From: Bacteroidia bacterium
Lineage (GTDB): Bacteria > Bacteroidota > Bacteroidia > NS11-12g > UBA955
DNA length: 64,000 nucleotides
Direction: 5' to 3'
NCBI GenBank assembly: GCA_044368575.1
Contig: JBIPPH010000001.1
Span: 65,663-129,662 of the forward strand
Within the stretch, counting starts at the first letter, position 1; every line of letters starts with the position of its first letter. The notes under the pieces were generated by a model. That model was not told the origin of the DNA, made no database searches, and saw only the letters and a list, made by a program, of their open reading frames with translations. Below, one piece after another: positions 756-28,091 of the stretch. The position numbers and the translations under genes are program-made.

Positions 756-2716
<1,961 letters not shown>

Positions 2717-2806
2717 TTATGGTTAAATGAAGGCCTGTAAAATCAATGATTCCAGCGTATCTGGATGAAAATTAAAACTGTACAGTTGGAGCAGATAACC
2801 GGATGA

Positions 2807-2814
2807 CAAAGGTA
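2807..2814 (-). promoter_or_regulatory. candidate -7 box TACCTTTG upstream of pyrG
   Basis: Plus strand reads caaaggta, about 97 nt upstream of the pyrG ATG, in the 111-nt kdsB-pyrG spacer. Confidence 0.3.
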
Positions 2815-2821
2815 GGGCTTT

Positions 2822-3580
2822 TTAGCCGGCAAATTCAGGATGTATTTTCAAGAAATTGTCAACAGTTTTTAAATCCTCAGGAGAATCCACAGCTGGACTA
2901 GAAAAATCGGTTGTACTCACATGTATTTTATAGCCATTTTCAAGCCAGCGCAATTGTTCTAAAGATTCTAATTGTTCTAAAGGGCTTAATGGTAAATGCA
3001 TTAATTGAGGAATGATGTTGCTGTTGAAACCATACATTCCAATATGTCTGTAGTATTGGTGTTTTAGATGCCATTCAGCTTGCTCAGTGCCTCTGATATA
3101 GGGTATGCTTTGTCTTGAAAACAGCAGGGCCATACCAGATAAATTACTGATGACTTTAACCACGTTGGGATTGAATAATTCTTCAGAACTTTGAATGGGT
3201 AACTGCAGGGTAGCAATGTCAGCATCGGTATGGTTTATGGCTTTGTACAAGAGTTCAATTTGTTGAGGTTGAATAAAAGGTTCATCACCTTGGAGATTGA
3301 TAACACAAGAATATGCTTGAGGTAAACTGCTAAACACTTCGAAACATCTATCTGAACCGCTTTGGTGTTCAGGGCTGGTCATTATACAATGACCAAATTG
3401 CGAAACATGGTCGAATATGCGTTGGTCATCAGTGGCCACATAAACGTCTTTCTCAAATGGCGCTTTGAGGGCTTGTTCATAGGTGCGTTGAATCATTGAT
3501 TTACCGGCAATGTTAACTAATGGTTTGCCTTCAAATCTTGTAGAGGCAAATCGAGCAGGGATAACAATTAATGCTTTCAT
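2822..3580 (-). CDS. kdsB: 3-deoxy-manno-octulosonate cytidylyltransferase (CMP-KDO synthetase)
   Basis: 252 aa with N-terminal ALIVIPARFASTRFEGKPL and an internal NLQGDEPF motif characteristic of KdsB. Confidence 0.9.
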   Translation of the reverse strand: MKALIVIPARFASTRFEGKPLVNIAGKSMIQRTYEQALKAPFEKDVYVATDDQRIFDHVSQFGHCIMTSPEHQSGSDRCFEVFSSLPQAYSCVINLQGDEPFIQPQQIELLYKAINHTDADIATLQLPIQSSEELFNPNVVKVISNLSGMALLFSRQSIPYIRGTEQAEWHLKHQYYRHIGMYGFNSNIIPQLMHLPLSPLEQLESLEQLRWLENGYKIHVSTTDFSSPAVDSPEDLKTVDNFLKIHPEFAG

Positions 3581-3585
3581 AATTT

Positions 3586-6090
3586 TTAAAATGATACACT
3601 TAAACCTAGTTTGATGCCAAATTTTCTGACCGTACTGCCATCTAACTGAGTTAATCTATGGACAAAGGCTATTTGCATTACTTTAAATACATTTTCAAGT
3701 CCGTAGGCCATTTCTATATAGGGCTCTTTGTTGATTTTATTTTCCAGTTGACTAATAGGTCTGTTGTAGTCATCTGTTTTTGGTATCAATGCTTTGTTGG
3801 CATCACTGATTGTGCCCATTACTGCTCTGGCTTCGAAAAATTCTCTCCATTTTAATTTTTTCATGATTGGCACTCTGTTTAAAATGGCACCATTAAAGTG
3901 GTGTTCCATTTTTAAGAATACACTTTGGTCAGTAATGAATTCAAAGAAGTTCATTAAGTTGTAAGCACTTGTGCTGTATACAAAAGATTGATTCCCTCTG
4001 TGAACCTCTAAAAGCGGATAGGGTAAGGTTTCGAAAATTTTTGTTGCACTTAATGTAAAATCTGTTCTTCCCCAATACCCAAAACTAAGCCCTTTTTCAA
4101 TAGAGGCTGTTACTCTGTTGTAATCAAATCGACTGCCAAAAACGCCTTTAAAACCATGGGTATAATTGAGGGATAATGCAAAGCCCCCTGGTTTAGACTG
4201 TTTCACCCTTTCGTTATCGTTTTGAAGGTAATATTCCTTGGGCGCCCATCTTAATCCAAGAGTCATAGTTGAATTGGTGAAATCACTTGATATGGATTGT
4301 GTGTCGTTTAGCTGGTCGAAATAGGCAAAATTGAATTGTCTAACAGGTTGAAATTGGTATTCTTTGTGCATCATTACCAATTTAAAGTTCCAACCTTTTT
4401 TAAATTCACTATTGAACCACACCTTGCTTTCTTTCGTTCTATTGAGTTGGCTGGCGGCAAAAACAGATACGGCTGTAAATAAATTACTAGAACCATAATA
4501 GTCATCAGTAACCCCAATTTGCTCCACATCTTTTTTGTAAGAGGCCCCCACCATAGTCCAATGCTTACGGTTTAAAACCCTTTCGGTTTGCAATTTGAAT
4601 TTGAATTGAGAATCAGAGAAGCCGTAAGCAGTATACGCACTTAAAATGTAATTTTTGCTAAAATGAAAATTGGTTTTCATGCCCAATCTCAAACGATGTC
4701 CTTCAAGTACATTGTATCCATACATCATGGCATATGGCCCCCAATCAATTTTTCCTATTGTTTTGTAGCCATTGAAAGCGATGTTGATGAATTCGACATA
4801 GTTCTTAATCACTTTGACATTGGTTAAAGTGTCTATTTTAGATAAAACTCTTTTTTCATCAGCGCTGAGGGCTTCATGTCTAGCAGTATCCCAATACTCA
4901 TTAGAATGCGTAGTAGCCCCATCTGTCATAATAATAGGGTAGTCATAAAAAGTGTTTGGGTGATCAATGTTAACGGCAATTTTTTCATAAGAATTGCTAA
5001 ACATAGCAATCATACCTGCAGATTTTTTTGACATTTCTGCAATGTCTATTAATATCCTAGATTTCACTGGTACATATGCACCCGCTGCCGTAGGCGCAAG
5101 TTCCTGAGTGATTTTTAGTTTTTCAATAAAGTTAAGATTGGCTTTGTTGGTAATGCTCAGAGATAAAGACCTTAAAGCAAACGTTGAATCCTCTATCCAA
5201 ACATAACCCGTAAAGACTAGGTCAAGTGGGTTTTTTGGCGTCACTTCAATTTGATAGATTTTTTTTCGACTGCCTTCAGGGTAATGAGAACCTACTAATT
5301 TGTAGTTGTAATAAGTGAATGATGATTTACTGATTGGAGATATAAAACTCTTTTCCAAAATCGGTAAAATATTGTCGTTGAAATTATATTGCTGAAAGGT
5401 GGATCCTAATAGCTGTGATAGAAATGTGCCATCTTCAACACCAACCCCTTTAACCCTTGAAGCTAAAATGACTTCTTTATTTTGTTTTGGATTTTTTTTG
5501 AAATAAAATTGGCTTAAATTTTCAGATAAAAATATCGGTAATACTAATTTATCGCGGTCTTCACTTAAATAGGAAATGGTATCAAAAATGCCTTCAACTT
5601 GTTTTAATAATTTCTTGTTTTTGAGTTCTTCAGAAACATTGTTAACTGCTATTTGGACCTTGGTGAAACTCTCACATTCAAAGGCGTCTAATTTTTCGAA
5701 ATTATAATTTTGTTTGTTGTTTTGAGCCTTTTCTATCACCATAATGGCTCTGTTGATTTTATTGGTGGTTTTGACACCTGCCAAGGTGGTTTCTTTAACC
5801 ACCATTTGCACCTTTAGGGTTTGTGTGCTACCTATTTGCACTTTAAAGTACTGAGTGGCATAGCCAACATAAGAAACCGACAAACTATCAGCACTCATTT
5901 GTGTTTTGATTTGAAAATAGCCTTCAAAATTACTAAAGGCTCTATTCTCTGTGCCAATAAAATGGACCATAGCACCAGACATCGGCTCCCCAGTTTTTTG
6001 ATCCATAACGCGCCCTTTCACTATGGTCCAGTCTTGTGCAGACACAGATGTGAAAAGCGAAATCAATAACATTAAATACAAATAGCGCAT
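3586..6090 (-). CDS. CarboxypepD_reg-like plus DUF5686-type outer-membrane protein
   Basis: Signal peptide MRYLYLMLLISLFTSVSAQ. An N-terminal VKGRVMDQKTGEPMSGAMV carboxypeptidase-regulatory-like fold is followed by a long beta-rich region ending in an aromatic residue (LSVSF). Start moved to the ATG at 6090; the GTG at 6096 lies inside a promoter box. Confidence 0.6.
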   Translation of the reverse strand: MRYLYLMLLISLFTSVSAQDWTIVKGRVMDQKTGEPMSGAMVHFIGTENRAFSNFEGYFQIKTQMSADSLSVSYVGYATQYFKVQIGSTQTLKVQMVVKETTLAGVKTTNKINRAIMVIEKAQNNKQNYNFEKLDAFECESFTKVQIAVNNVSEELKNKKLLKQVEGIFDTISYLSEDRDKLVLPIFLSENLSQFYFKKNPKQNKEVILASRVKGVGVEDGTFLSQLLGSTFQQYNFNDNILPILEKSFISPISKSSFTYYNYKLVGSHYPEGSRKKIYQIEVTPKNPLDLVFTGYVWIEDSTFALRSLSLSITNKANLNFIEKLKITQELAPTAAGAYVPVKSRILIDIAEMSKKSAGMIAMFSNSYEKIAVNIDHPNTFYDYPIIMTDGATTHSNEYWDTARHEALSADEKRVLSKIDTLTNVKVIKNYVEFINIAFNGYKTIGKIDWGPYAMMYGYNVLEGHRLRLGMKTNFHFSKNYILSAYTAYGFSDSQFKFKLQTERVLNRKHWTMVGASYKKDVEQIGVTDDYYGSSNLFTAVSVFAASQLNRTKESKVWFNSEFKKGWNFKLVMMHKEYQFQPVRQFNFAYFDQLNDTQSISSDFTNSTMTLGLRWAPKEYYLQNDNERVKQSKPGGFALSLNYTHGFKGVFGSRFDYNRVTASIEKGLSFGYWGRTDFTLSATKIFETLPYPLLEVHRGNQSFVYSTSAYNLMNFFEFITDQSVFLKMEHHFNGAILNRVPIMKKLKWREFFEARAVMGTISDANKALIPKTDDYNRPISQLENKINKEPYIEMAYGLENVFKVMQIAFVHRLTQLDGSTVRKFGIKLGLSVSF

Positions 6091-6095
6091 CCTCA

Positions 6096-6103
6096 CAAAA
6101 ATA
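6096..6103 (-). promoter_or_regulatory. -7 type promoter box TATTTTTG
   Basis: Plus strand reads caaaaata, 5 nt upstream of the ATG at 6090 (minus strand). Confidence 0.45.
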
Positions 6104-6259
6104 TTTCATTTTTAAACGTCTTCCCTAATTGCTTCATGATATTTTATCCCATTTTGTGAATAAGTCTATGCTTTTGCTTGTAAAAAAGAGTGCCTTGTTT
6201 TGTTTCATGATTGTTGAAAAATAATTCAACAAAAAAAACAGGGCACTAGGTTTATACTC

Positions 6260-6267
6260 TATCTTTG
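6260..6267 (+). promoter_or_regulatory. -7 type promoter box TATCTTTG for the riboswitch transcript
   Basis: Exact TAnnTTTG match just upstream of the cobalamin riboswitch aptamer. Confidence 0.5.
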
Positions 6268-6269
6268 CA

Positions 6270-6500
6270 TCGAGTATTGGTTTTTGATTGACTGGCAAAG
6301 TCAATTAAAATTAAAAGGGAATTGGGTGTAAATCCCAAACATTTCCCGATGCTGTAAACACTCGCCTTGTGCGATTTTTGGACTTATGCCACTGTCTGTA
6401 AAGATGGGAAGGTTCCAAAAGTTTGAGTGTAAGTCAGAAGACCTGCCATACCCATTTTAAATCAAGACTTTCGGTGAAAAGGTCTGAGGTGTCATACAAA
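6270..6500 (+). promoter_or_regulatory. cobalamin (B12) riboswitch; boundaries approximate
   Basis: Conserved core elements appear in the canonical order: AGGGAA 6316-6321, GGGTGTAAATCCC 6324-6336, CCCG 6345-6348, GCTGTAA 6351-6357, GCCACTG 6388-6394, GGGAAGG 6406-6412, and the B12 box AGTCAGAAGACCTGCC 6432-6447. It sits directly upstream of a TonB-dependent receptor gene. Confidence 0.85.
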
Positions 6501-6551
6501 TTGTTTGTACATTTCATTGTTTTCCCTTTAGTCTGTTGATAAACAAACAGA

Positions 6552-8429
6552 ATGAAGAAGACCATTTGTCTCATAGCTATTAGCCTGTTTGCCATGCTAT
6601 TACATGGTAAGGGGATAGATACTTCTGTTTGGCGTAACTTCGAGTTAATTGCTAGTAAAGACCATATTAATCCGGGTTCCATTCGCATCAATCTACCACA
6701 ACAGCAAGATGGCAGCATAGCGGATGTGCTCTCAAAGAACAGTGCATTGTTTATTAAAACCTATGCGCCTGGTAGTTTAGCTACAACATCTATGCGGGGC
6801 ATGGGGGCTCAACATACGGCGGTTTTATGGAATGGTATCAATTTGCAAAGTTCAATGAATGGTGTCATAGACTTAAATATTCTACCCATGTTTTTTATAG
6901 ATAAGGCGGCCATTGAAACAGGGGTTAATGCCTCATTGTGTGGCAATGGAGCCCTAGCTGGAGCCATTGTTACCAATACAGATTTTCAATCACCCAAAAA
7001 ATTAATTGGCGAAATGGCATATGGTAGTTTTGGTCAGAAACAATTGGCTTTGGGTTTTACCACAAAAATTAAACAACTGGTTTTACATACTAGATTGTTT
7101 AATAAATCTGCCAACAATGATTTTGAATACTACAATGCCTTTAAAATAGGTCAACCTTTAGAACGTATACAAAACAATCAGTTTCAACAGGCTGGGGTCA
7201 TGCAAAGTATTCGCTTGAAATTATCTGATTCTAAGAAAATACAAGCTTCTTGGTGGTACCTGAATACACAGAGAGGTTTGCCAGCCGTAATGGGTGCTGC
7301 CTCGCACAATGAACATCAAAACGATTACAATGCCATAGCTTGTGTACAATACGATTACACCTTGCCGAATAAACAAGTCTTCAATAGCAAATTGGCCTTT
7401 AATTCAGAAATGATCAATTACTTCAATGATTTGTTGTCGCCAGCCTTAAACACCGCACGGTCTTTGATTTCTGAATCTCAATACACGATTAAATTCAAAC
7501 GCCATTTAGAATGGTATAATAGCTTCAATGCGACTTATCAAAAAGCATGGACAGACGGTTACAGACAAGGTGTTGATCGTTTGGGTTTATCGTGGCACAG
7601 TCGATTGACTTGGTTGGCGAACAAGACCTTTAAATTACACATGGGCAATAGGCAAATGATGGTTCAGGATTTAATGGCGCCTTCTACACCAGATGTAAGC
7701 ACTGAATGGGCTTTTCATCCCAATTGGAAACACAAATTAAATGCAGCTTATAGCTTTAGATTGCCTTCCTTTAATGATTTGTATTGGATGGGAGGGGGCA
7801 ACCCGGATTTAAAATCCGAGAAAGGTAAAAAAGTAGAAAGCAGTATTGAATTTAAACAATCAGGATTTAAACTAGGGCTTACAGGTTTCTTTCATCATGT
7901 GAATGATTGGATCATGTGGGTGCCAGCAACTGGTGCTTCACTTTGGAAAGCAATTAATGCTAAGACTGTGGAAAGTAAAGGCTGTGAATTGTCTTCTGAA
8001 CTTAAATGGAATATCAGTAAACAATTGCTTGTTAAATGGTTTTCCAAGTACCAATATGTTAACAGTGTCAACAAAGCGGTGTATGGCACTGATCAAAGCA
8101 TTATAGGAAAGCAGTTGTTTTATACACCTCAGCATACAGGGATAAGCCAAATACAGTGTCTATTCAATAAATACCGAATTGCAACTGCTTGTCAATATGT
8201 AGGTCAAAGATTTACTACAGCAGATAATGCTATAACAGGTCAATTACCGGCCTACTTAATTTGGCAACTAGCTTTGTCAAGAGAAATGGATTTTGGGCAG
8301 TGGCATTCAAGCCTTGAACTCACCATTAATAATTTAAGCAATGTCAATTATATGGTCTTTGAAAATAGACCAATGCCACTCCGCAATATATACTTAACTT
8401 ATAAATTCAATATCAATTATGAACATTAG
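6552..8429 (+). CDS. btuB: TonB-dependent outer-membrane receptor, BtuB-like (cobalamin)
   Basis: 625 aa with a signal peptide and a plug-domain motif (SMRGMGAQHTAVLWNGINLQS), followed by a beta-barrel. BtuB-like size and position behind a cobalamin riboswitch. Confidence 0.75.
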   Translation: MKKTICLIAISLFAMLLHGKGIDTSVWRNFELIASKDHINPGSIRINLPQQQDGSIADVLSKNSALFIKTYAPGSLATTSMRGMGAQHTAVLWNGINLQSSMNGVIDLNILPMFFIDKAAIETGVNASLCGNGALAGAIVTNTDFQSPKKLIGEMAYGSFGQKQLALGFTTKIKQLVLHTRLFNKSANNDFEYYNAFKIGQPLERIQNNQFQQAGVMQSIRLKLSDSKKIQASWWYLNTQRGLPAVMGAASHNEHQNDYNAIACVQYDYTLPNKQVFNSKLAFNSEMINYFNDLLSPALNTARSLISESQYTIKFKRHLEWYNSFNATYQKAWTDGYRQGVDRLGLSWHSRLTWLANKTFKLHMGNRQMMVQDLMAPSTPDVSTEWAFHPNWKHKLNAAYSFRLPSFNDLYWMGGGNPDLKSEKGKKVESSIEFKQSGFKLGLTGFFHHVNDWIMWVPATGASLWKAINAKTVESKGCELSSELKWNISKQLLVKWFSKYQYVNSVNKAVYGTDQSIIGKQLFYTPQHTGISQIQCLFNKYRIATACQYVGQRFTTADNAITGQLPAYLIWQLALSREMDFGQWHSSLELTINNLSNVNYMVFENRPMPLRNIYLTYKFNINYEH

Positions 8430-9444
8430 ATCATTTTACTTTTGTTTTCTGCTATCAATAGCCTTGTTCGCTTGTAAGCCAGATGCCCAACAAACCATTA
8501 TAACAGACGATTTTAAAGGTATTTTTGTTGTCAATGAAGGTGGTTTTGGTAAATCCAATGGCAGCATTGGTTTATACAAACCAGGAAGTCAACAGTATTT
8601 TGATGCTTATAAAACTGCCAATGGCATTGGTCTTGGAGATGTGGTACAATCTATGACTTTAATTGATGGTAAATATTATATAGCGGTCAATAATTCTAAT
8701 AAAATTGAAGTGGTCAACCAGTCAGATTTTAAATCCGTTGCTAGCATTGCAACAACCTCTCCAAGATATGTTTTAAAAACAGCCACCAATAAAGCCTTTG
8801 TTAGTAATCTATACAGCAATACCGTTAAGGTTGTAAATACTAGCAATTATGCTATTGAGTCAAGTGTTGATGTTCACCACAATACAGATCAACTAATGCT
8901 GTTTAATAGCAAAGTGCTTGCCAGTACCTTTGATCAAAAAATCATGGTGATAGATCCTAGCAGCAACAGTTTAATAGACTCTATTAGCTCAGCTTCAGGA
9001 CTCAGTAAAATGGTAGCAGCTAATCAAGGTGTATACTTACTCTGCACAGGATTGTTAGATTGGAACACAGGCGCCACAATAGAAAAGGGAGCCATTCAAT
9101 TTGTGAATGATACTTTTGGTGTTGAACAATCTTGGCCGTTAATGTCTGCTAGTTATGGCGGCTCAATGGTGTATGCTAATAGTTTGAACGCACTGTTGTT
9201 CAGCTTAGGAGATAATAAAATCATTAAAATGGCATTTGACGGTACTATGACAGATTGGTTGGTGTTACCTACAGGTCAATCTGTTTATGGTCTTAATTGG
9301 GATGCGCAAAACGCCCAATTATACATCAGTGATGCAGGCGATTTTAATGCCAATGGTAAGGTATATGTATATGATGCCACTGCCAATAAAGTTAAGGAAA
9401 TTAGTGCAGGCATAGCCCCTAATGGTGTTGTATTAAATCCTTAA
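8419..9444 (+). CDS. surface lipoprotein, YncE/DUF5074-like beta-propeller
   Basis: Lipobox LSIALFAC followed by the FVVNEGGFGKSNGSIGLY motif; repeated beta-strand-rich blades. It overlaps the receptor gene by 11 nt. Confidence 0.55.
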   Translation: MNIRSFYFCFLLSIALFACKPDAQQTIITDDFKGIFVVNEGGFGKSNGSIGLYKPGSQQYFDAYKTANGIGLGDVVQSMTLIDGKYYIAVNNSNKIEVVNQSDFKSVASIATTSPRYVLKTATNKAFVSNLYSNTVKVVNTSNYAIESSVDVHHNTDQLMLFNSKVLASTFDQKIMVIDPSSNSLIDSISSASGLSKMVAANQGVYLLCTGLLDWNTGATIEKGAIQFVNDTFGVEQSWPLMSASYGGSMVYANSLNALLFSLGDNKIIKMAFDGTMTDWLVLPTGQSVYGLNWDAQNAQLYISDAGDFNANGKVYVYDATANKVKEISAGIAPNGVVLNP

Positions 9445-10514
9445 TGTGGCGTTTCCTTTTTTTTGCTCTCTTGCTCACGTCTTGCCTTGAGCGCCCCAAT
9501 ACAGTTAGAGTTGTATCCCAGCAGTTTTTACCTGTAAACTACAGCCAATCTTTTACTTTAGCCAGTAATGATTCTGAGTTTCAGGTCAACTATCTGTTAG
9601 CAAATGATACCCAATATGGACCTGTTTTTAAAAAGGCCCGTCTACCAAAACGAATAGTCGTTTTGTCTTCTGTTTTTGCCGGTTTTATTGAGGCCCTTAA
9701 CGCTAGCCATTGTATTATTGGGGTTGATAGAATAGCTTATTACAGTCATCCAGACTTAATTAATGCTTTTAAGAAACAACAAATCGTTGAGTTGGGCGAA
9801 GAGTCACAATTGAATGAGCAGCTCTTATATGATCTTAAACCGGATTTAATAGTGTCCAGTTCTGCATTGTTAAAGCAGACCGCTTTAATGGAACGTTGTA
9901 AGCAAGCTAATATTCCCATACTAGTCTGCGATAATTACTTGGAGCAAGAGCCTTTAGCAAGGGCAGAATGGATTAAAGTATTTGGTTGTGTATTGGGTAA
10001 AACTCAAGCTGCCAATAATTTGTTCGACACTGTTGCTTTTAATTACAACGCACTCAAACAGCAGAATCAATTGCTGAACATTAAACCCAAGGTTTTAACT
10101 GATGCACTTTACAGCGATGCTTGGAATGTGCCAGGTGGCAAGAGTTATACAGCTCAATTAATTCAAGATGCAGGAGGTGAATATATTTTTAAAGCTTTCA
10201 ATCAAAGATTTTCTTATGCTTTTAATTTAGAGAAAGTCATCACTTTAGCTTCTGATGCTGATATTTGGATCAATATGAATCGCTATGCTAGTAAGCAAGC
10301 ACTTTTGGCGGCAGATTCAAGATATCAAGTTTTTAAAGCCTTTCAATTGGGACAAATGTTTAATAACCATAAAAGGGAATTGCGCTCAGGGGCTAATGAT
10401 TTTTGGGAAACAGGACCCGTGAGGCCAGATTGGGTTTTAAACGATTTGACTTGGATAATGGCGCACCCAAATATTTCTACTGATAAATTGTTTTTTTATC
10501 AAAAGCTAGAGTAA
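9444..10514 (+). CDS. periplasmic-binding-protein type lipoprotein (BtuF/FecB-like ABC substrate-binding component)
   Basis: Lipobox LLLTSC. RIVVLSSVFAGFIEALNASHCIIGV and DLKPDLIVSS are typical of class III (Peripla_BP_2) binding proteins. TAATG stop/start overlap with the previous gene. Confidence 0.65.
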   Translation: MWRFLFFALLLTSCLERPNTVRVVSQQFLPVNYSQSFTLASNDSEFQVNYLLANDTQYGPVFKKARLPKRIVVLSSVFAGFIEALNASHCIIGVDRIAYYSHPDLINAFKKQQIVELGEESQLNEQLLYDLKPDLIVSSSALLKQTALMERCKQANIPILVCDNYLEQEPLARAEWIKVFGCVLGKTQAANNLFDTVAFNYNALKQQNQLLNIKPKVLTDALYSDAWNVPGGKSYTAQLIQDAGGEYIFKAFNQRFSYAFNLEKVITLASDADIWINMNRYASKQALLAADSRYQVFKAFQLGQMFNNHKRELRSGANDFWETGPVRPDWVLNDLTWIMAHPNISTDKLFFYQKLE

Positions 10515-10519
10515 ATTTG
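10512..10519 (+). promoter_or_regulatory. -7 type promoter box TAAATTTG for the MBOAT cassette
   Basis: Exact TAnnTTTG overlapping the TAA stop of the binding-protein gene, 10 nt before the GTG at 10530. Confidence 0.4.
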
Positions 10520-10529
10520 ACGGTTTAAG

Positions 10530-11924
10530 GTGCTGTTCAACTCCTGGATATTTTTCTTGTTTTTGCCATTGGTAATGGCATTGAATTTTGCTTTACCACA
10601 TAGGTATAGGTGGATACTCTTGTTGTTGGCCTCTTATGTGTTTTATGGTTGGTGGCGAGCGGAGTTTTTGGTCATGATTGCCTTTTCAACTGCATTGGAC
10701 TACACCTGTGCCTTGAAAATTGAAGATGCCCAATCAGATATTGTTAGGCGGCGATGGATGTTGCTGAGCGTGATTACCAACCTCAGTATTTTATTCCTGT
10801 TCAAATATTTTTATTTCTTCGTCGGCACTGCGCCATTTATGCAAGGGCTAATGAATGAGCATCAGTCTATAAAAACGGCGGTTGAGTTTTTAGGTCAGTC
10901 ATTGCCGGTGGGTATATCTTTTTATACGTTTCAAACCATGAGCTACACGCTCGATGTGTATTACAGACGAGCTAGGGCTGAACGCAAGCTTGGTCAGTTA
11001 GCTTTATTTGTGTCGTTTTTTCCGCAACTAGTGGCAGGTCCTATTGAGCGCTATTCGCATTTGAATGAGCAATTAAAACAACGGCAGTTTTTAAATTATG
11101 CCAATATTCAGCAAGGATTAAGATTGATGCTCTATGGTTTTTTTGTAAAAATGGTGATCGCAGACAATCTATCTTACACAGTAACTTCAGTGTTTTCAGA
11201 ACCAGGTAAATGGGTATACTATTGGAACATTATTGGGGTTTTGAGTTTTGGTTTCCAAATTTATGCTGATTTTTTTGGTTACTCTCTAATTGCACAAGGG
11301 GCTGCAAAATGTTTTGGCATTGATTTAATGGATAATTTTAAAAGACCTTATCTGTCTAAAAACATCAGTGAATTTTGGCAGCGATGGCACATATCACTTA
11401 GTACTTGGTTCAGAGATTATGTATACATTCCATTAGGCGGCAACCGCGTGAGTAATCGCAAATGGGTGTTTAATGTTTTAATGGTGTTTCTGTTGAGTGG
11501 TCTTTGGCATGGGGCCAATTACACCTTTATTGTTTGGGGTGGATTGCATGGTTTGTATTATTTAATAGAAAGGTATTTTCCTTTAACCATTCGCTTCAGC
11601 TTAATCAAAGGCTTGATGACTTTTTTAGCGGTCGCATTTGCTTGGATATTTTTCAGAGCTGCTTCCATGCAAGAGGCTTATGCAGTGATACAAGGTTGTA
11701 TAAACAGTCTTCACGGCACAAAAGCATTAGATACGCAACCGTTTATTTTTTTACTCTTATTCTTGTTTGGTGTATTTGAATGGCAAAAAGGCGATCTCAG
11801 ATTTGATGGCTATTGCGCTCAATTGCCGGCATTCAAACGTTGGACCTTATATTGTTTTATGTTGTTTTGTATTTTGGTGGTTTGTGGATCAGAATACAAT
11901 GCCTTTATTTATTTTAAATTCTAA
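10530..11924 (+). CDS. MBOAT family O-acyltransferase (AlgI/DltB/PatA-like)
   Basis: 464 aa, polytopic. MLFNSWIFFLF start, FYTFQTMSYTLDVY, FFPQLVAGPIERY, FWQRWHISLSTWFRDYVYIPLGG, and the LSGLWHGANY catalytic His motif. Confidence 0.9.
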   Translation: MLFNSWIFFLFLPLVMALNFALPHRYRWILLLLASYVFYGWWRAEFLVMIAFSTALDYTCALKIEDAQSDIVRRRWMLLSVITNLSILFLFKYFYFFVGTAPFMQGLMNEHQSIKTAVEFLGQSLPVGISFYTFQTMSYTLDVYYRRARAERKLGQLALFVSFFPQLVAGPIERYSHLNEQLKQRQFLNYANIQQGLRLMLYGFFVKMVIADNLSYTVTSVFSEPGKWVYYWNIIGVLSFGFQIYADFFGYSLIAQGAAKCFGIDLMDNFKRPYLSKNISEFWQRWHISLSTWFRDYVYIPLGGNRVSNRKWVFNVLMVFLLSGLWHGANYTFIVWGGLHGLYYLIERYFPLTIRFSLIKGLMTFLAVAFAWIFFRAASMQEAYAVIQGCINSLHGTKALDTQPFIFLLLFLFGVFEWQKGDLRFDGYCAQLPAFKRWTLYCFMLFCILVVCGSEYNAFIYFKF

Positions 11925-12925
11925 TGTATCAGTGCGTTAAATATGGCATAAAATTAGGCTTAATCGGATTAACGGTAGGGCTCAGTGCATTTGTATACAA
12001 GGCCATTTATTGGGAGCCCGAATTAAAAGATCAAGGGCATATGCTGTTCAATGTTTTAGAATTTGAGTGGCATAACGATGCGCTTTATATTGGCGAATCT
12101 TCTAATTATTGGACCTCCCCAAATGATTCTGATAAACGCAGCATCAGTGAAATGATCAATGCGCAATTAGCGCATGGACGCTTGAGTGGGACTCAAGTGC
12201 CTGCTTATCATGCTGGCATGTTTTTGCCAGTCATCAAACAGATCGATCCTAAAAGCCGTGTTAAGCATTTGGTGGTCACTATGAATTTAAGGTCCTTCGG
12301 TCAAGCATGGATATACTCTACTCAAGAAGCCGCTCTTATGCGTTCAAAATGTTTTTACGGCGATCAGCATCCATTGTTCAATAGAATGGCTGCAGCCTTA
12401 GGGTACTATGAACAACCAAGTGCCGCAGAGCAAGAAGCCAAAATGTTAGCCGCCTTTGAACATGATCGCATACAAAGTCAAGTGGCTTTGCCCTATACTA
12501 CCATCAATACTTGGAAAGACCACATTGTGTTCGATGATCCTGCTAAGCAAGCATTGGCCCATCATTATGTTAAGGCCTATGCCTTTTCTATCGATACCTT
12601 AAACAATCCTAGGGTAGCAGATTTTGATGAAATGGTTAATGTGTGCCGCTCAAAAGGCATTCGCTTGTATTTTAATGTCATGTCTGAAAATACCGCTTGG
12701 GCCGATAGTTTGGTTGGTCCGGCTTTGTCTGGTTTGATGCGTGAAAACGTAGCTAAACTGGTTAAGCGCTATGCTTCTAAAGGCGTGGTCATGATTGATA
12801 ATTTAAACCTTGTGCCTGCCGAATGTTTTGGTGAGAAGGATTGGACCACTGAGCACTATGATCAAAGAGGCAGACAAATCATTGCCCAACAAGTAGCAAC
12901 CACTCTTAACCGATATGTGCACTAA
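11924..12925 (+). CDS. membrane-anchored DltD/SGNH-like partner of the MBOAT (putative acyl-transfer/esterase)
   Basis: N-terminal TM helix. A GESS motif (ALYIGESSNY) sits near residue 60 and a C-terminal TEHYDQRGRQIIA motif resembles SGNH block V. This topology matches DltD. TAATG overlap with the MBOAT gene. Motif reading by eye only. Confidence 0.4.
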   Translation: MYQCVKYGIKLGLIGLTVGLSAFVYKAIYWEPELKDQGHMLFNVLEFEWHNDALYIGESSNYWTSPNDSDKRSISEMINAQLAHGRLSGTQVPAYHAGMFLPVIKQIDPKSRVKHLVVTMNLRSFGQAWIYSTQEAALMRSKCFYGDQHPLFNRMAAALGYYEQPSAAEQEAKMLAAFEHDRIQSQVALPYTTINTWKDHIVFDDPAKQALAHHYVKAYAFSIDTLNNPRVADFDEMVNVCRSKGIRLYFNVMSENTAWADSLVGPALSGLMRENVAKLVKRYASKGVVMIDNLNLVPAECFGEKDWTTEHYDQRGRQIIAQQVATTLNRYVH

Positions 12926-13424
12926 GTGGATTTATGGGCTATTGCTTTTGACTTTGATGGCCTGTCAGCAAAAAACTTCCAAGATGCAAACGGTTTTGCA
13001 GGCAGATTCTATGCAATTGTTTGTGTTTTTAAATTTGGATTGTCCGATATGTCAAAAATACCAAGGTCAATTCAAGTCTATAGAAGACAGCGCTTATACC
13101 ACCTATTATGTATTTCCGGGTCAAAGTCAGAATAAACAATTAAGCCATTGGATGCAATACAATCAGATTGATCCTGCTTATGTTATCCAAGATTCAAACT
13201 TTGTTTGGACAGATTTTACAAAGGCAAGCAATACCCCAGAGGCGATACTGTATCACCGAGAGCAAGTCATATACAGGGGTTTGTTAACGGATCAATTTAG
13301 AGGTGTTGGAGCGTTTCAATCCGAAGGGCATATTAATTATGTTCATAATGCCCTAAATTCGCTGCGTCAACATGTTCCGATTCAAAACACCAAACCTGTG
13401 GGTTGTTTTATTGAGCCTCATTAG
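12915..13424 (+). CDS. thioredoxin-fold lipoprotein with CPxC motif
   Basis: Lipobox LLLTLMAC. A redox-type motif FLNLDCPICQKY and TPEAILYH...VIYRG (cis-Pro region) are typical of TlpA/redoxin-like proteins. Confidence 0.55.
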   Translation: MCTKWIYGLLLLTLMACQQKTSKMQTVLQADSMQLFVFLNLDCPICQKYQGQFKSIEDSAYTTYYVFPGQSQNKQLSHWMQYNQIDPAYVIQDSNFVWTDFTKASNTPEAILYHREQVIYRGLLTDQFRGVGAFQSEGHINYVHNALNSLRQHVPIQNTKPVGCFIEPH

Positions 13425-14733
13425 TGCTTTGTTTTTGGCCTGTCAGCCAAACAAGGTAGAATTTTGTAAAGATGTTGCACCCATAATTGAAAAGCATTGC
13501 ACACCCTGTCATAATTCAAAGGGAGCAGCCCCTTTTGAACTTTCCAATTATTGGCAAGTCAAACAAAAGGCTAAAATGATTGCTTTTGTTACCCAAAAAA
13601 GAATAATGCCACCTTGGCCGGCAGATCCTGAATACACTCATTTTATAGGCGAACGTTTATTGACTGAAGCGGAGATTCAAACCCTTAAGGATTGGTATCA
13701 GCAGGGTTGTCCTAAGGGCGATGATACGCATTTGAAACTGCATTATGCAGACAACTCCTCAATGAGTTTGGGGCCAGCTGATATGGTAATCAATCTTGAA
13801 CCGATTGCCATTAAAAACAACAATAAAGACCAGTTTTTGGTGGTAAAAATACCTTATGAAATGCCTGAGGCCAAATTTGTAAAGGCCGTTGAATTTTTGC
13901 CAGGTCAAATGGCTTATTTGCACCATGTGAATGGTCATTATCTGCGCTTAAACAATACCAGTCATCCCTTTGAAGGCAATAGAGTAGTAGATGTAGAAAG
14001 TCCTCAATATGAAAAGGCATTTATGGATTTACAATTATTAAATGCAGATGGCTCAATACCTGAACGTGTGCATTCTGCTTTTAATTTTTTACCCGGTGCT
14101 TATGGGGTAGCTTATCCAAATGGTATTGGAGGTTTTTGGATGAGTCCAAAGGGCATTTTTGTGGCCAATGATATGCACATAGGGCCATCAACAAAATCAT
14201 GTATTGACTCTTCAAAGTTATTATTGTATTTTTCAAAGACACCTAATCAAAGACCTACTTTTGAAATAATGATGGGTACCAATGGGATCAGTCCTGTAGA
14301 GCCTGCATTGCAAATAGCACCTAATACCATCAGTAAACATCTATCAAGAACACGTATCTATACTGATATGTCTGTTTTAACGGTCAATCCGCACATGCAT
14401 TTACTTGGTAAATCATTTAAAGCCTATGCCATTTTACCCAATGGTGATACTACTAAATTGATTCATATTCCTCAGTGGCAATTCCGTTGGCAATATTTTT
14501 ACACTTTTACCCATCCGGTTCGCATACCAAGAGGCAGTGAACTTATTGTGGAGGCTGTTTTTGACAATACACTAAAGAATCCTAATAATCCGTTTAATCC
14601 ACCACGCTTAATTGGTGAAAGAACAGATAGAGGGGGAGCCAGTATGCGCACTACAGATGAAATGTTGCAGTTCATTATCACCTATTTGCCTTACCAAAAG
14701 AACGATGAGTTAATCGATTTAACCCAACCATGA
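13372..14733 (+). CDS. lipoprotein with N-terminal CxxCH haem-c motif and PHM/DBH-like copper type II monooxygenase domain
   Basis: Lipobox LFLAC and CTPCH at 13498-13512, followed by RIMPPW. HH at 13921-13926, H at 14176-14178, HMH at 14392-14400 and TDEM (Met at 14662-14664) match the CuH (H,H,H) and CuM (H,H,M) ligand pattern of peptidylglycine alpha-hydroxylating monooxygenase. Confidence 0.65.
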   Translation: MFRFKTPNLWVVLLSLISALFLACQPNKVEFCKDVAPIIEKHCTPCHNSKGAAPFELSNYWQVKQKAKMIAFVTQKRIMPPWPADPEYTHFIGERLLTEAEIQTLKDWYQQGCPKGDDTHLKLHYADNSSMSLGPADMVINLEPIAIKNNNKDQFLVVKIPYEMPEAKFVKAVEFLPGQMAYLHHVNGHYLRLNNTSHPFEGNRVVDVESPQYEKAFMDLQLLNADGSIPERVHSAFNFLPGAYGVAYPNGIGGFWMSPKGIFVANDMHIGPSTKSCIDSSKLLLYFSKTPNQRPTFEIMMGTNGISPVEPALQIAPNTISKHLSRTRIYTDMSVLTVNPHMHLLGKSFKAYAILPNGDTTKLIHIPQWQFRWQYFYTFTHPVRIPRGSELIVEAVFDNTLKNPNNPFNPPRLIGERTDRGGASMRTTDEMLQFIITYLPYQKNDELIDLTQP

Positions 14734-15377
14734 AAACCCTAAAGCCATTATTTTGGATATGTTTGTTTTTACTCATACTGAGTGTGGGGTTGGCTTATAT
14801 TAAACCCATTATAAGAGCGGTTCAAAATTATACTTCAGACGATTATAAAGGGGGACTTGATATGGTTGAAAAACATTTTGGCTCTGACATCGATAGTGCA
14901 GCTCAAGTATTTCAAATAGAACCAGCCTATTTAAAGGCACTTTGTATGTTAGAGTGCAGTGGAAAAAAAGCAATAAGCCCAAGGTTTGAAGCCCATGTGT
15001 ATAAGCAACTTAAACGTGTGCAAGCAGGCACTATACAAAACTATGAGCATGTACAAGCGAGTATGTTGAAGGATGCTAACGATGATGCAATTCGCAATTT
15101 GGCGAGTAGTTGGGGGCCTTTCCAATTAATGGGTTATAAATGTTTGCTTTTAGATATTAAGATCAGAGACATTAGAGGGCCTGATGCAGTTTTTTATGCT
15201 GTGAAATGGATTCATTTGACTTACGGTGATTATTTAAAAAAGCATCAATATAAAGATGCTTTTCACATTCACAATACAGGACAAAAATTTCCAAGTAACG
15301 GCAAAGCCAAAACCTATGATCCAAAGTATTGCCAACGGGGTTTACAATACATGAAACATTTTCAAGCCCCAAATTAA
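14730..15377 (+). CDS. membrane-anchored lysozyme-like protein (SLT or DUF3380 muramidase-like)
   Basis: N-terminal TM helix. A candidate catalytic Glu lies in LKALCMLECSG...RFEAHVY, followed by SSWGPFQLMGYK, resembling the E-S...GxxQ(I/L)MG signature of lytic transglycosylase/muramidase folds. ATGA overlap with the previous gene. Confidence 0.45.
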   Translation: MKTLKPLFWICLFLLILSVGLAYIKPIIRAVQNYTSDDYKGGLDMVEKHFGSDIDSAAQVFQIEPAYLKALCMLECSGKKAISPRFEAHVYKQLKRVQAGTIQNYEHVQASMLKDANDDAIRNLASSWGPFQLMGYKCLLLDIKIRDIRGPDAVFYAVKWIHLTYGDYLKKHQYKDAFHIHNTGQKFPSNGKAKTYDPKYCQRGLQYMKHFQAPN

Positions 15378-17014
15378 TAGACTTTTTGTCCTAAGGCATA
15401 AGTAGCAATTACCTTGCTCGTTAAAAGGTCCTTTGGCTGTTTTAAATGATAAAAATCTCTGTCTATTATCACCAAGTCGGCATCTTTACCTTTACATAAA
15501 CTGCCTTTCCTATGTTCCAAGCGACAAGCTTTGGCTGCCCAAATGGTCATGCCTTTGAGGGTTTGATCCATACTCAGTGCTTCATCTTTTAAAAAAGGTT
15601 GATCATTGCTTCTTTGTGCGCTGAGTCTAAAAACTGCGCTGTAAATCGTATAGAATGGGTCAATGTATTCAACAGGAAAATCAGTGCCCAATGCTAAATA
15701 GCCATTTTGTTTAAGCAAAGATTGATAAGCGTATGCAGAGGCCATTCTGTTGTCGCAAATACGAGCACTCACCCAAGGTGCATCACTGGTGGCATGTGTG
15801 GGTTGCACACTTGGAATAATACTAAATTGTTTGAAGAGGGCTCTGTCTTTAGGCTCTACCAATTGAGCATGCTCAATCCGCCAACGTCTGTCATTAGGGC
15901 CTTTTAACTGTTGTCCATACAAATCCAAAAGCAGAATATTGGCAGAATCACCAATGCAATGGGTATTGATTTGGTAGTTGGTGTTTTCGTAAATGTCTTT
16001 ACAAAAAGCTTGTAACATGCTCTTTGAACTGACCCAGTAGCCATTGTGATGCGCTCTGTCACAGTAGTCTTGTTTTAATTTTGCGCCTCTGCTGCCAAGT
16101 GCGCCATCTGCATACAATTTAAAGGAGGCAATTTGACTGAATTGATTTTCATAAAGCCCCTTGCTTTTGGCAAATTGTATTGCCGCTTGTTCTGGAGTAA
16201 GCATCATGTACAAAAAGATACGGCGCTGTGCCGCCTTGCCCAAACTGTCAAGGTACAAACATTCTTTAAGCGGAAGGCCTGCATCAGCAAGGGTTGTTAG
16301 GCCTTTGCTAAAGCATAATTGCTCCGCAGTTTGTATGGCTTTTAAAAGTTTTTGATCATGATGATAAGTGAAATAATGGTCTACTAAGTTGACGGCATTG
16401 TCAACTAAAACACCAGTTAAAGAATTGTTTTTGCTGATAATTTCACCACCAATTACTTTTGTGTTGTTGACAATGTTTGCGGCAGAAAGTGCTGCTTGAT
16501 TGCAAATGACAGCGTGTCCATCAATGCGTTTTAGAACTACAACTCTGTTAGGAAATAAGGTGTTTAATAATGCGTTGTCAGGGAAAGTTTTGTTGGCCCA
16601 ATCATTTTGGTCCCAACCTCTGCCCAACAAAGGTTCATTGTCCGCTAAAGTTTTTTCAAATTGTTTAAGTGAATCCAGAACGGCTTCCCATGAAGGACTG
16701 CCAATTAAATTGCATTGTAACTGGTTATTGGCATAACCCAAAAAATGACAGTGGGCATCTATGAAACCTGGGTATACCCATTGTGATTTTAAGTCTGTAG
16801 TGGTTTTGCCGCTGTATTGTTTCAAAAGTGCTTTTCCACCTATATCTATAATTTTGCCTTTATCTATAATAATAACTTCTGCTAGTGGCATAGAATCATT
16901 CATGGTATAAATATGCCCATTGAAAAGAACGGTATCAACTAACTGAGTTGATCTTTGACAACTTTGAGTGATCAAGATGCTCATCAATACAACAATAAAG
17001 TGCTTTGCTTTCAT
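15374..17014 (-). CDS. amidohydrolase family lipoprotein (Amidohydro_3 / YtcJ-like)
   Basis: Lipobox LITQSC and the metal-binding motif GFIDAHCHFLGY, with C-terminal GTDFPVE and GKDADLVIID motifs. Start set to the ATG at 17014. Confidence 0.8.
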   Translation of the reverse strand: MKAKHFIVVLMSILITQSCQRSTQLVDTVLFNGHIYTMNDSMPLAEVIIIDKGKIIDIGGKALLKQYSGKTTTDLKSQWVYPGFIDAHCHFLGYANNQLQCNLIGSPSWEAVLDSLKQFEKTLADNEPLLGRGWDQNDWANKTFPDNALLNTLFPNRVVVLKRIDGHAVICNQAALSAANIVNNTKVIGGEIISKNNSLTGVLVDNAVNLVDHYFTYHHDQKLLKAIQTAEQLCFSKGLTTLADAGLPLKECLYLDSLGKAAQRRIFLYMMLTPEQAAIQFAKSKGLYENQFSQIASFKLYADGALGSRGAKLKQDYCDRAHHNGYWVSSKSMLQAFCKDIYENTNYQINTHCIGDSANILLLDLYGQQLKGPNDRRWRIEHAQLVEPKDRALFKQFSIIPSVQPTHATSDAPWVSARICDNRMASAYAYQSLLKQNGYLALGTDFPVEYIDPFYTIYSAVFRLSAQRSNDQPFLKDEALSMDQTLKGMTIWAAKACRLEHRKGSLCKGKDADLVIIDRDFYHLKQPKDLLTSKVIATYALGQKVY

Positions 17015-17078
17015 GTAGTACAATATTATTACTTCTACTGAGTTTTAACAAGCAGATAATGAGTCTAAGTTATTTTGT

Positions 17079-26452: not shown

Positions 26453-26525
26453 GCCACTTTAGCTCAGCTGGTAGAGCAACTGATTTGTAATCAGTAGGTC
26501 GTTGGTTCGATCCCGACAAGTGGCT
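26453..26525 (+). tRNA. tRNA-Thr (anticodon UGU)
   Basis: 73-nt cloverleaf folded by hand: acceptor gccactt/aagtggc, anticodon arm actga-tttgtaa-tcagt, T-loop ttcgatc. CCA is encoded (26526-26528). Confidence 0.93.
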
Positions 26526-26538
26526 CCAAATTGTAATT

Positions 26539-26619
26539 GGGAAGTTTCCAGAGTGGCTAAATGGGACAGACTGTAAATCTGTTGCTTCGGCTTCGGTGGT
26601 TCGAATCCACCACTTCCCA
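26539..26619 (+). tRNA. tRNA-Tyr (anticodon GUA)
   Basis: 81 nt with a long variable arm, acceptor gggaagt/acttccc, anticodon loop ctgtaaa, T-loop ttcgaat. CCA is encoded. Confidence 0.9.
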
Positions 26620-26661
26620 CCACGACAATTGACACAACATTTTAGACTCTGTGTTTGAATT

Positions 26662-26734
26662 GCGGGAGTAGCTCAGTTGGTAGAGCGACAGCCTTCCAAG
26701 CTGTAGGTCGCGGGTTCGAGCCTCGTCTCCCGCT
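26662..26734 (+). tRNA. tRNA-Gly (anticodon UCC)
   Basis: 73 nt; acceptor gcgggag/ctcccgc, anticodon arm acagc-cttccaa-gctgt. CCA is not encoded. Confidence 0.92.
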
Positions 26735-26771
26735 CTGCTCAGGCGAGTTTCGGTGTTGAGAATTTAAACCA

Positions 26772-26843
26772 GCCGTTGTAGCTCAGGGGTAGAGCACTTC
26801 CTTGGTAAGGAAGAGGCCAAGGGTTCAAATCCCTTCAATGGCT
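26772..26843 (+). tRNA. tRNA-Thr (anticodon GGU)
   Basis: 72 nt; acceptor gccgttg/caatggc (one G-U), anticodon arm cttcc-ttggtaa-ggaag. CCA is not encoded. Confidence 0.92.
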
Positions 26844-26903
26844 CAGATAGATAAAAGAAAAAGTAAAAATTAGAATATAATAACATAAAAAAACAAATTA
26901 ATC

Positions 26904-28091
26904 ATGGCAAAAGAAACATTTGACCGCTCTAAAGCCCACGTTAACATTGGAACTATTGGTCACGTTGACCACGGTAAAACCACATTAACTGCGGCTATTA
27001 CTACAGTTTTATCTACAAAAGGTTTAGCTGAAAAATCATCTTTTGAATCTATCGACTCTGCTCCAGAGGAAAAAGAAAGAGGTATCACAATCAACACTGC
27101 ACACGTTGAGTACAATACCGAAACTAGACACTACGCACACGTTGACTGTCCGGGCCACGCTGACTATGTTAAAAACATGGTAACTGGTGCTGCTCAAATG
27201 GACGGTGCCATCCTAGTTGTTGCTGCAACTGATGGTCCAATGCCACAAACTCGTGAGCACATCTTGTTAGCTCGTCAGGTTGGTGTACCTCGCTTGGTTG
27301 TTTTCTTAAACAAATGCGACATGGTAGACGATGCTGAATTATTAGACTTAGTTGAAATGGAAGTTCGTGAATTATTGAGCTTCTACCAATTCGACGGTGA
27401 CAATACTCCAATCATCCGTGGTTCTGCTTTAGGTGGATTAAACGGTGAGCCTGCTTGGGTTGAAAAAATCATGGAATTAATGAATGCAGTTGATACTTGG
27501 ATTCCAATTCCTCCACGTTTGGTTGACCAACCATTCTTGATGCCAGTTGAAGACGTGTTCTCAATCACTGGTCGTGGTACAGTTGCTACAGGTCGTATCG
27601 AAAGAGGTGTAGTTAACGTAGGTGAAGCAGTTGACATTATCGGTCTTGGTGATGAAAAATTATCTTCTACTATTACTGGTGTAGAAATGTTCCGTAAACT
27701 CCTTGATAGAGGTGAAGCTGGTGACAACGCAGGTTTATTATTGCGTGGTATCGACAAAACCCAAATCAAAAGAGGTATGGTTATTTGCAAACCAGGTTCA
27801 GTAACTCCACACGCTAAATTTAAAGCTGAGGTATACGTATTGAGCAAAGAAGAAGGTGGTCGTCACACGCCATTCTTTAACAAATACCGTCCACAATTCT
27901 ATTTCCGTACCACGGACATCACTGGTGAAGTATCTTTACCAGAAGGTGTAGAAATGTGTATGCCTGGTGATAACATCACTATCACAGTTCAATTGATCGC
28001 TCCAATCGCTATGGAAAAATCTCTACGTTTCGCTATCCGCGAAGGTGGTAGAACCATCGGTGCTGGTCAGGTAACTGAAATTTTAGACTAA
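26904..28091 (+). CDS. tuf: elongation factor Tu
   Basis: 395 aa; [18 protein letters not shown] and NKCD GTPase motifs, with full-length EF-Tu similarity. Confidence 0.99.

Follow-up and report, generated by a model that had tools for sequence, protein, structure and literature searches.

A five-gene envelope array of a Bacteroidia bacterium is probably a lineage-specific fusion of three extracytoplasmic modules behind a cobalamin-riboswitch btuB-btuG-btuF cluster

DltB/DltD, PatA/PatB, and AlgI/AlgJ-AlgX are two-component extracytoplasmic O-acyltransferases, and PHM-type copper enzymes are textbook ascorbate-dependent enzymes of animals. The BtuB-BtuG-BtuF loci of Bacteroides consist of a riboswitch followed by overlapping genes for a TonB receptor, a BtuG-type propeller lipoprotein, and a BtuF-type protein (PMC6143338, PMC10404256). 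We analyzed a 64,000-nucleotide stretch of contig JBIPPH010000001.1 from a Bacteroidia bacterium (assembly GCA_044368575.1), called the window here, in which an array of five overlapping genes at 10512 to 15377 resembles the first two kinds of system and lies directly behind genes that resemble the third. Our reading, to which we give a probability of about 0.7, is that this interval arose in one lineage by the fusion of three extracytoplasmic modules, each conserved independently of the others and now packed into one transcription unit behind a cobalamin-riboswitch btuB-btuG-btuF cluster. We propose as modules a membrane-bound O-acyltransferase (MBOAT)/SGNH acyltransferase pair (module A), a thioredoxin-fold lipoprotein, P3, with a haem-copper lipoprotein, P4 (module B), and a muramidase-like protein, P5 (module C). 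The features of the array are as follows.

10512 to 10519, + strand: TAAATTTG, putative promoter box of the Bacteroidota -7 type, whose TAA is the stop codon of the btuF-like gene
10530 to 11924, + strand: ORF1, MBOAT gene, GTG start
11924 to 12925, + strand: P2 (ORF2), anchored SGNH-fold MBOAT partner, DltD/PatB-like
12915 to 13424, + strand: P3 (ORF3), thioredoxin-fold lipoprotein
13372 to 14733, + strand: P4 (ORF4), lipoprotein with a mono-haem cytochrome c domain and a probable PHM/DBH-type two-domain dicopper monooxygenase core
14730 to 15377, + strand: P5 (ORF5), membrane-anchored lysozyme-like protein
15374 to 17023, - strand: convergent Amidohydro_3 gene of 549 residues, the array boundary (open reading frame call; orthologue with PF07969/PF01979)

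The open reading frames (ORFs) of the array overlap at every junction, as read from the sequence: ORF1 and P2 share TAATG (11922 to 11926), P2 and P3 share 11 nucleotides (nt) (12915 to 12925), P3 and P4 share 53 nt (13372 to 13424), and P4 and P5 share ATGA (14730 to 14733). An earlier description of this DNA, made from its letters alone and called the sequence-only reading here, had reported five overlapping same-strand ORFs closed by a convergent gene at 15374; all of the junctions are present at those positions, and the convergent gene overlaps P5 by 4 nt. That description also held that every product is membrane embedded or carries a lipobox or transmembrane anchor, in agreement with the lipoboxes that we read in P3 (LTLMAC) and P4 (ALFLAC) and with N-terminal hydrophobic helices in P5 and in P2 (helix 2 to 37 of its AlphaFold2 [AF2] model). 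We judged extracytoplasmic targeting by eye from the sequences.

The sequence-only reading had further inferred that the five genes work as a single module on one envelope polymer, and this claim failed when co-localization was checked across related genomes. We collected 165 loci, 85 around P4 homologues and 80 around P2 homologues, together with look-ups of P2 and P5 homologues, called ORFs in the relatives' loci, and searched these with the window proteins. An MBOAT gene lay directly upstream of P2 in all 74 homologous loci with upstream sequence, where the two stand as a pair of their own, and the pair was present in distant genomes without btu, P3, P4, or P5 genes (L086, L087, L088, and L091); distant genomes with the pair include Brumimicrobium oceani and one Bacteroidales metagenome-assembled genome (MAG), in neither of which the other genes are close by. 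MBOAT and P2 are an obligate pair. P3 and P4 are a separate pair: a P3-like ORF stood directly upstream of P4 in most of the 85 P4 loci, and the unrelated surroundings of the two included a sensor histidine kinase, mutS, skp-skp-murI, ornithine-lipid genes, a second TonB receptor, and a divergent extracytoplasmic function (ECF) sigma factor. Only the closest clade has P5 behind P4 (22 loci, with the ATGA overlap), and P5 stood alone in L092 and L094. L094, which shares its sample and apparently also its MAG with L018 and L089, has a P5 homologue with the same convergent 4-nt overlap with an amidohydrolase gene and no P3-P4 upstream.

The same independence was seen among the window's nearer relatives. 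The riboswitch-btuBGF-MBOAT-P2 block occurred without P3-P4-P5 downstream in L089, L090, L102, and L106, and the MAG that holds L090 has its P3-P4-P5 genes on another contig (L024). In most close relatives, P2 and P3 are parted by a second TonB receptor gene or by divergent ECF-sigma genes (L002, L008 to L010, L014, L017, L019, L057, L098, and L101), in which case a TAnnTTTG box of its own precedes P3. The modules are separate in L018, L024, L089, L090, L092, L094, L102, and L106 and in all of the distant loci. Three candidate structures around P3 and P4 were rejected on inspection. A 1174-residue ORF located 5' of P3-P4 in one clade, considered as a SusC-like receptor, is the sensor histidine kinase; in what looked like a double P3, the leading ORF encodes a SpoU methylase that was clustered with P3 via run-on ORFs; and the oversized P3- or P4-like ORFs checked included no genuine P3-P4 fusion, the 616-residue ORF of L080 being an upstream run-on.

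The direct P2-P3 junction was restricted to the window, its 95 to 97% identical copies (L006, L095, and L096), L001, and L015. L014 and L017 are close to L015 and retain the TonB receptor that L015 lacks, so that deletion, on more than one occasion, gave rise to the junction; the window and L015 lost the second receptor in independent events. No homologue of the second receptor or of the relatives' ECF-sigma genes was found in the window. The TAnnTTTG box of P3 was present 12 to 32 nt upstream in 13 loci that have intergenic DNA before P3, and no such box lies within 100 nt in the fused window, L006, or L015; in fused L001 the nearest is 86 nt upstream. Where the second receptor is retained (about 730 residues; L002 7280 to 9478, L014, L017, L019, and L057), it is located between P2 and P3, with an end that abuts P3, and is of a generic, siderophore/FecA-like kind, with no copper clue to its specificity. 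Two other arrangements were seen in relatives. P3-P4-P5 is divergent from an ECF sigma gene and two small unannotated ORFs, possible anti-sigma components, in L008 (7869 to 9448, - strand), L009 to L012, and L020 to L029. Paired arylsulfotransferase-like proteins of about 890 residues, with Big_5 repeats and a type IX secretion system sorting tail, are encoded upstream of ECF-sigma/P3-P4-P5 in L011 (2149 to 7653), L020, and L029.

These data bear on the model that came with the single-module claim, in which the five proteins would act together in one pathway for the O-acylation and oxidative modification of one envelope polymer, most obviously peptidoglycan, with the muramidase-like member processing the same substrate. 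Complete translational coupling in the window, the extracytoplasmic location of all products, the P4-P5 ATGA overlap in 22 loci, and the modules being neighbors across the window's clade would all suit such a pathway, as would a P5 relative fused to an L,D-transpeptidase domain, described below, and a locus (L043) in which an MBOAT pair is divergent from a P4 homologue. However, the modules are apart in most genomes sampled, the P2-P3 junction is limited to the few loci named above, where it arose by deletion and coincides with loss of the P3 box, and in another clade P4 is followed by an unrelated 370-residue gene, apparently a cytoplasmic GNAT and uninformative. We consider the one-pathway model highly improbable. 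In L043 (7371 to 11305), the MBOAT (6e-97 to that of the window) and a 341-residue partner are divergently adjacent to the P4 homologue; this partner was undetected by the P2 profile or Pfam, and L043 is the only MBOAT/P4 adjacency outside the window's clade in the sampled loci.

Profile and fold comparisons upheld the assignments that the sequence-only reading had given to the five products (an MBOAT, a DltD-like protein, a CPxC thioredoxin-fold lipoprotein, a haem-c/PHM-like copper enzyme, and a lysozyme-like protein), the second without a Pfam family and the last below curated thresholds. ORF1 is an MBOAT of the AlgI/DltB/PatA type. It scored 105.2 bits against PF03062 (cutoff, 27) and 28.9 bits against MBOAT_2 (cutoff, 25), its sequence holds an N-terminal MLFNSW motif and a WHG histidine motif, and it is not a DltB equivalog (145.6 bits versus a cutoff of 375 for TIGR04091). 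P2 matched no Pfam or NCBIfam family, with nothing above cutoff for the Pfam DltD or Lipase_GDSL models, and no precomputed Pfam domain was found in the 120 P2 homologues listed of the 312 found. First profile searches of the PDB with P2, as with P5, returned nothing significant. An AF2 model built from 36 sequences (predicted local distance difference test [pLDDT] score, 94.3) showed the long N-terminal helix and an alpha/beta core, and Foldseek matched it to GDSL/SGNH hydrolases, including DltD (6pfx at 2.5e-5, 6o93, 3bma, and 7dxm) and PatB (7tjb). By these comparisons P2 has an SGNH fold (flavodoxin-like alpha/beta) with an N-terminal membrane anchor. Its invariant residues include G-E58-S59-S60, N121, and E310-H311, a set that is similar to an SGNH active site without being canonical.

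The MBOAT-P2 pair resembles DltB/DltD, PatA/PatB, and AlgI/AlgJ-AlgX in that an MBOAT gene is followed by an overlapping gene for an N-terminally anchored SGNH-fold protein, and DltD and PatB are among the structural matches of that protein. It differs from them in that P2 lacks a Pfam or NCBIfam family, the MBOAT falls far under the DltB equivalog cutoff, the motifs of P2 are not the canonical ones, and in one clade the pair sits behind btuBGF. By analogy with the AlgI/AlgJ, PatA/PatB, and DltB/DltD types, module A is probably a two-component O-acyltransferase in which the MBOAT would pass an acyl group across the inner membrane and P2 would transfer it to a hydroxyl of an envelope polymer. 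Many distant P2 homologues (P0198 to P0239; L111, L117, L127, and others) are about 500 residues long with a C-terminal extension, and a few are named "DUF4843 domain-containing" by NCBI. The Bacteroidales contig of L088 has two tandem MBOAT pairs (2369 to 8975), one partner being ALGX-like and the other P2-like. In L039 (15017 to 19655) and L041 (15745 to 20374), - strand, an MBOAT gene has as neighbors two genes for GDSL-lipase proteins, of which one or both carry tandem LysM domains, in what looks like a peptidoglycan O-acetylation set; this set and a P3-P4 pair on the other strand are about 4 kb apart.

P3 has the motifs of a thioredoxin-fold protein: DCPIC (DCPxC), a TPE cis-Pro loop, and a C-terminal VGCxIE. 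The window P3 alone had no Pfam match, and the P3 family profile matched 2YWI (2.9e-16) and 2CVB (1.1e-12) in the PDB. Among 32 family members, Thioredoxin_2 was found in 24, Redoxin in 19, and AhpC-TSA in 16; the second Cys of the CPxC is not universal in the family. P3 shares the CPxC, the cis-Pro, and a C-terminal YxGxIDD...GCxI(E/K) motif with the 2YWI/2CVB type ("probable thiol-disulfide isomerase") and with periplasmic reductases of the ResA/CcsX/TlpA type, from which it differs in being lipid anchored and specifically coupled to a haem-copper protein. P3 would serve the maturation of P4, by reducing its CxxCH cysteines or handling copper, or would supply redox equivalents.

P4 begins with a domain of about 110 residues that has the marks of a c-type cytochrome. 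It carries a CxxCH motif (C43-x-x-C46-H47) and a candidate axial Met (M79), invariant in 52 sequences, is helical in the AF2 model, and follows a lipoprotein signal; Pfam matches to Cytochrome_CBB3 and Haem_bd were sub-threshold only. The remainder reached 24.9 bits for PF03712, the C-domain of the PHM family, which is marginal against the cutoff of 23, and left the N-domain PF01082 unmatched. Sequence and profile searches of the PDB with P4 gave nothing significant, and fold comparison was needed. The AF2 model, built from the 52 sequences, had a pLDDT score of 87, and its top 30 Foldseek matches were all PHM or DBH (best, PHM at 7.6e-13, with a template-modelling score [target] of 0.61), over a core of two jelly-roll domains. 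We then compared P4 with the rat PHM catalytic core, whose sequence was checked against PDB entries 4E4Z and 1SDW. With hhalign (E = 1.7e-4), H184, H185, and H269 of P4 aligned with the CuH ligands H107, H108, and H172, and H341, H343, and M431 aligned with the CuM ligands H242, H244, and M314. All six aligned copper ligands are invariant in the 52 homologues, which are 48 to 77% identical.

From the model and the aligned ligands, P4 is most likely a periplasmic dicopper monooxygenase. It shares with PHM and DBH the two jelly-roll core and the alignment of the His3 ligands of CuH and the His2Met ligands of CuM. It differs from them in being a bacterial lipoprotein of about 16% identity with PF01082 unmatched, in its genetic coupling to the thioredoxin-fold lipoprotein P3, and in its likely source of electrons, which is an N-terminal mono-haem cytochrome c instead of the DOMON domain or free ascorbate. 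By analogy with PHM, O2 would be activated at CuM, and CuH would receive its electrons through the fused cytochrome c domain and not from ascorbate. The alternative is that P4 is no oxygenase but a redox-inactive or copper-handling or copper-binding lipoprotein that keeps the PHM fold, P3 then being a general periplasmic thiol-disulfide oxidoreductase. The remoteness of the similarity speaks for this alternative, given the lack of a PDB sequence match and a PF03712 score barely above cutoff with PF01082 unmatched, and the fold is shared by PNGase F, which is non-redox (PMC8812541). Against it, the six PHM copper ligands, the haem motif, and the candidate axial Met are all invariant, and PHM and DBH, rather than PNGase F, head the structural matches. 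We regard a non-oxygenase role as unlikely. The P3-P4 family has 2,942 database homologues, with 561 matches in species-representative genomes, and appears confined to Bacteroidota. Our literature search found no characterized bacterial PHM-type or PF03712 enzyme; absence there is no proof.

The lysozyme-like character of P5 comes from concordant weak matches. P5 scored 13.3 bits against its nearest family, PF11860 (N-acetylmuramidase, endolysin type), under the cutoff of 22.3, and matches to PF11860 in 18 of 40 and 15 of 39 P5 family members reached 3.7e-5 at best, none attaining the curated cutoff. A broad P5 profile gave weak PDB matches (E, 0.02 to 0.7), the best of which were all endolysins (5NM7, 7RUM, and 7Q4S) or goose-type lysozymes. 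The SWGxxQ(I/L)MG motif is common to P5 and these matches and aligned to 5NM7, 7RUM, and 7Q4S at E values of 0.02 to 0.06. E75 of P5 is invariant, and a 55% identical homologue (P0308) is named "N-acetylmuramidase family protein" by NCBI. The likeness to the PF11860 (DUF3380) endolysin domain and goose-type lysozymes consists of an invariant catalytic-type Glu and the SWGxxQ(I/L)MG and HNxG motifs. P5 differs from these proteins in its score under the curated threshold, its N-terminal membrane anchor, its chromosomal non-phage context, and its occurrence as a stand-alone housekeeping-like gene in other genomes. Distant P5-profile matches of 300 to 590 residues had no Pfam domain. One distant relative (alignment A8) has a fused YkuD_2 L,D-transpeptidase domain (1.2e-31), which ties the P5 family to peptidoglycan.

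The sequence-only reading had placed an exact TAAATTTG promoter box at 10512 to 10519, on the upstream stop codon. The position is correct, and conservation across orthologous loci backs its role as a promoter, though the octamer is at chance level in the window (10 copies versus 10.9 expected). TA[AG]ATTTG was present 18 to 22 nt 5' of the conserved GTG/M-L-F MBOAT start in all 12 orthologous loci first examined, and a TAnnTTTG box 29 to 32 nt 5' of the start was also present in L089 (TAGATTTG) and L090 (TAGTTTTG). Overall, the box is conserved upstream of MBOAT in 14 orthologous loci at distances of 18 to 32 nt. Because it is conserved across these loci with a variable spacer after it, and because in L089 it still precedes the MBOAT gene despite a different upstream gene, TAAATTTG is probably a genuine internal promoter with a Bacteroidota -7 element, which would imply a very short leader. 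A scan with the sigma-70 consensus, which is unsuited to Bacteroidota, was at chance level. The terminator scan also listed a perfect 7-bp hairpin, TGCCATTGGTAATGGCA, at 10564 to 10580, with a T-rich run behind it. This hairpin lies within the MBOAT ORF, 35 nt in, and may have arisen by chance or may act as an attenuator shortly downstream of the putative internal promoter.

The interval at 10512 to 15377 is not isolated, since the gene upstream of it belongs to a riboswitch-headed array that starts at 6261. The sequence-only reading had missed this context, a riboswitch and btuB-btuG-btuF immediately upstream. The array has these features, the three genes overlapping on the same strand 5' of ORF1.

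6261 to 6463, + strand: cobalamin riboswitch aptamer (Rfam RF00174), head of the same-strand array
6552 to 8429, + strand: BtuB-like TonB-dependent receptor (Pfam Plug and TonB_dep_Rec_b-barrel)
8419 to 9444, + strand: BtuG-like beta-propeller lipoprotein (Pfam DUF5074, 5e-17)
9444 to 10514, + strand: BtuF-like periplasmic binding lipoprotein (Pfam PF01497, Peripla_BP_2, 1.6e-16)

The riboswitch matched RF00174 over its full length (model positions 1 to 189) with 100.1 bits against a gathering threshold of 31.5, and orthologous riboswitches scored 79 to 91 bits in L002, L009, L015, L089, and L090, with nhmmer finding further loci. A hairpin and U-run 3' of the aptamer (6485 to 6530) is conserved in orthologous loci and has a weak folding-energy z score of -1.3; it is a plausible terminator-type expression platform, compatible with transcription attenuation. 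A TATCTTTG box at 6260 to 6267 abuts the 5' edge of the riboswitch. The best NCBIfam match of the receptor was TonB-B12 (4e-26, under cutoff). The BtuG-like protein matched BtuG2 structures by phmmer against the PDB (8BMX, BtuG2-CNCbl, 9.6e-27; also 3DSM and 8P97), whose codes are confirmed in PMC10404256. Its gene overlaps the btuF-like gene by TAATG, and the btuF-like gene ends 15 nt before ORF1. The array is like the Bacteroides Btu loci in the order riboswitch, TonB receptor, BtuG-type propeller lipoprotein, BtuF-type protein and in the overlap of the genes. It differs from them in lacking btuCD and btuH genes and in having the MBOAT/SGNH pair 15 nt downstream, which is undescribed for the Bacteroides loci in those reports (PMC6143338, PMC10404256).

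The linkage of MBOAT-P2 to riboswitch-btuBGF is confined to one clade, with P2 identity of at least 53%. There it was found in seven of the eight metagenome loci with enough upstream sequence, in 12 loci derived from the P4 search, and in L089 and L090, with btuF-MBOAT gaps of 15 to 29 nt and at least three kinds of flanks (DUF5686/amidohydrolase, PriA/HD-LpxD, and DapF/MurC). Such conservation, in about 20 loci of one clade, is what would be expected if the MBOAT/SGNH pair served B12 acquisition and 6261 to 15377 were, in this lineage, a cobalamin-riboswitch regulon for envelope remodeling when corrinoids are scarce. Acylation of a surface polymer or lipoprotein on which corrinoid capture depends would be one such change. 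A scan for terminators from the btuF-like gene to the MBOAT gene found none convincing, which together with the plausible expression platform also fits a shared regulon. Against this, a conserved promoter box of its own precedes the MBOAT gene, btu genes are missing from all 38 of the more distant P2 loci that have enough upstream sequence, and one clade member, L103, lacks them as well. Our literature search found no link between an MBOAT and a cobalamin riboswitch, absence there being no proof, and we know of no B12 chemistry that needs O-acylation. We therefore hold a B12 regulon to be quite improbable. The chance is equally slim that the btuB-btuG-btuF-MBOAT-SGNH block works as one functional unit and that corrinoid starvation turns on envelope O-acylation, together with, in the window's lineage, the haem-copper monooxygenase and muramidase.

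We return to a fusion of three independent modules as the preferred reading. In this account, the conserved TAnnTTTG promoter on the btuF stop codon would drive MBOAT-P2. Deletion of the second TonB receptor and of the P3 promoter in the window's lineage would have packed modules A, B, and C into one unit, so that P3-P4-P5 would be expressed from the MBOAT promoter, and read-through from the B12-repressed upstream promoter would probably add to the expression of the fused genes.

Several points weigh against this account. The transcript structure, including the promoter and the read-through, is predicted from sequence, and the gene starts are longest-ORF calls. The relatives are all MAGs or metagenome contigs, many of them closely related, so that the loci are not independent and the taxon labels are unreliable. 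In many loci of the window's own clade the modules lie within a few kilobases on the same strand, and some functional cooperation among them is possible there. The active site of P2 is non-canonical, with GESS and E-H instead of GDS and DxxH. The lysozyme-fold assignment of P5, with its sub-threshold sequence matches, is the weakest of the five.

Elsewhere in the window, 26453 to 28220 and 31199 to 39372 hold five tRNA genes around an EF-Tu-sized ORF (26904 to 28091), with ORFs of the size of rpoB and rpoC after them, an arrangement that resembles the conserved tuf-rpl-rpoBC region.

The locus illustrates how the genes of unrelated modules, recently fused by deletion, can come to overlap tightly, and it cautions against inferring function from translational coupling alone. 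P2, which has no Pfam family, extends the list of MBOAT two-component acyltransferases of Bacteroidota. The novelty of the array lies in an uncharacterized family of probable haem-copper monooxygenases and in the clade-specific linkage of an MBOAT pair to B12 genes. An acyltransferase pair inside a B12-riboswitch array offers a testable link to B12 in this clade, and a B12-responsive program of envelope remodeling, if true, would have no described precedent. The P3-P4 family keeps a complete PHM/DBH dicopper site together with a built-in cytochrome c. If P4 is indeed a cytochrome c-fed bacterial periplasmic PHM, it would represent a new electron supply for PHM chemistry and would point to a hydroxylated envelope or peptide substrate.

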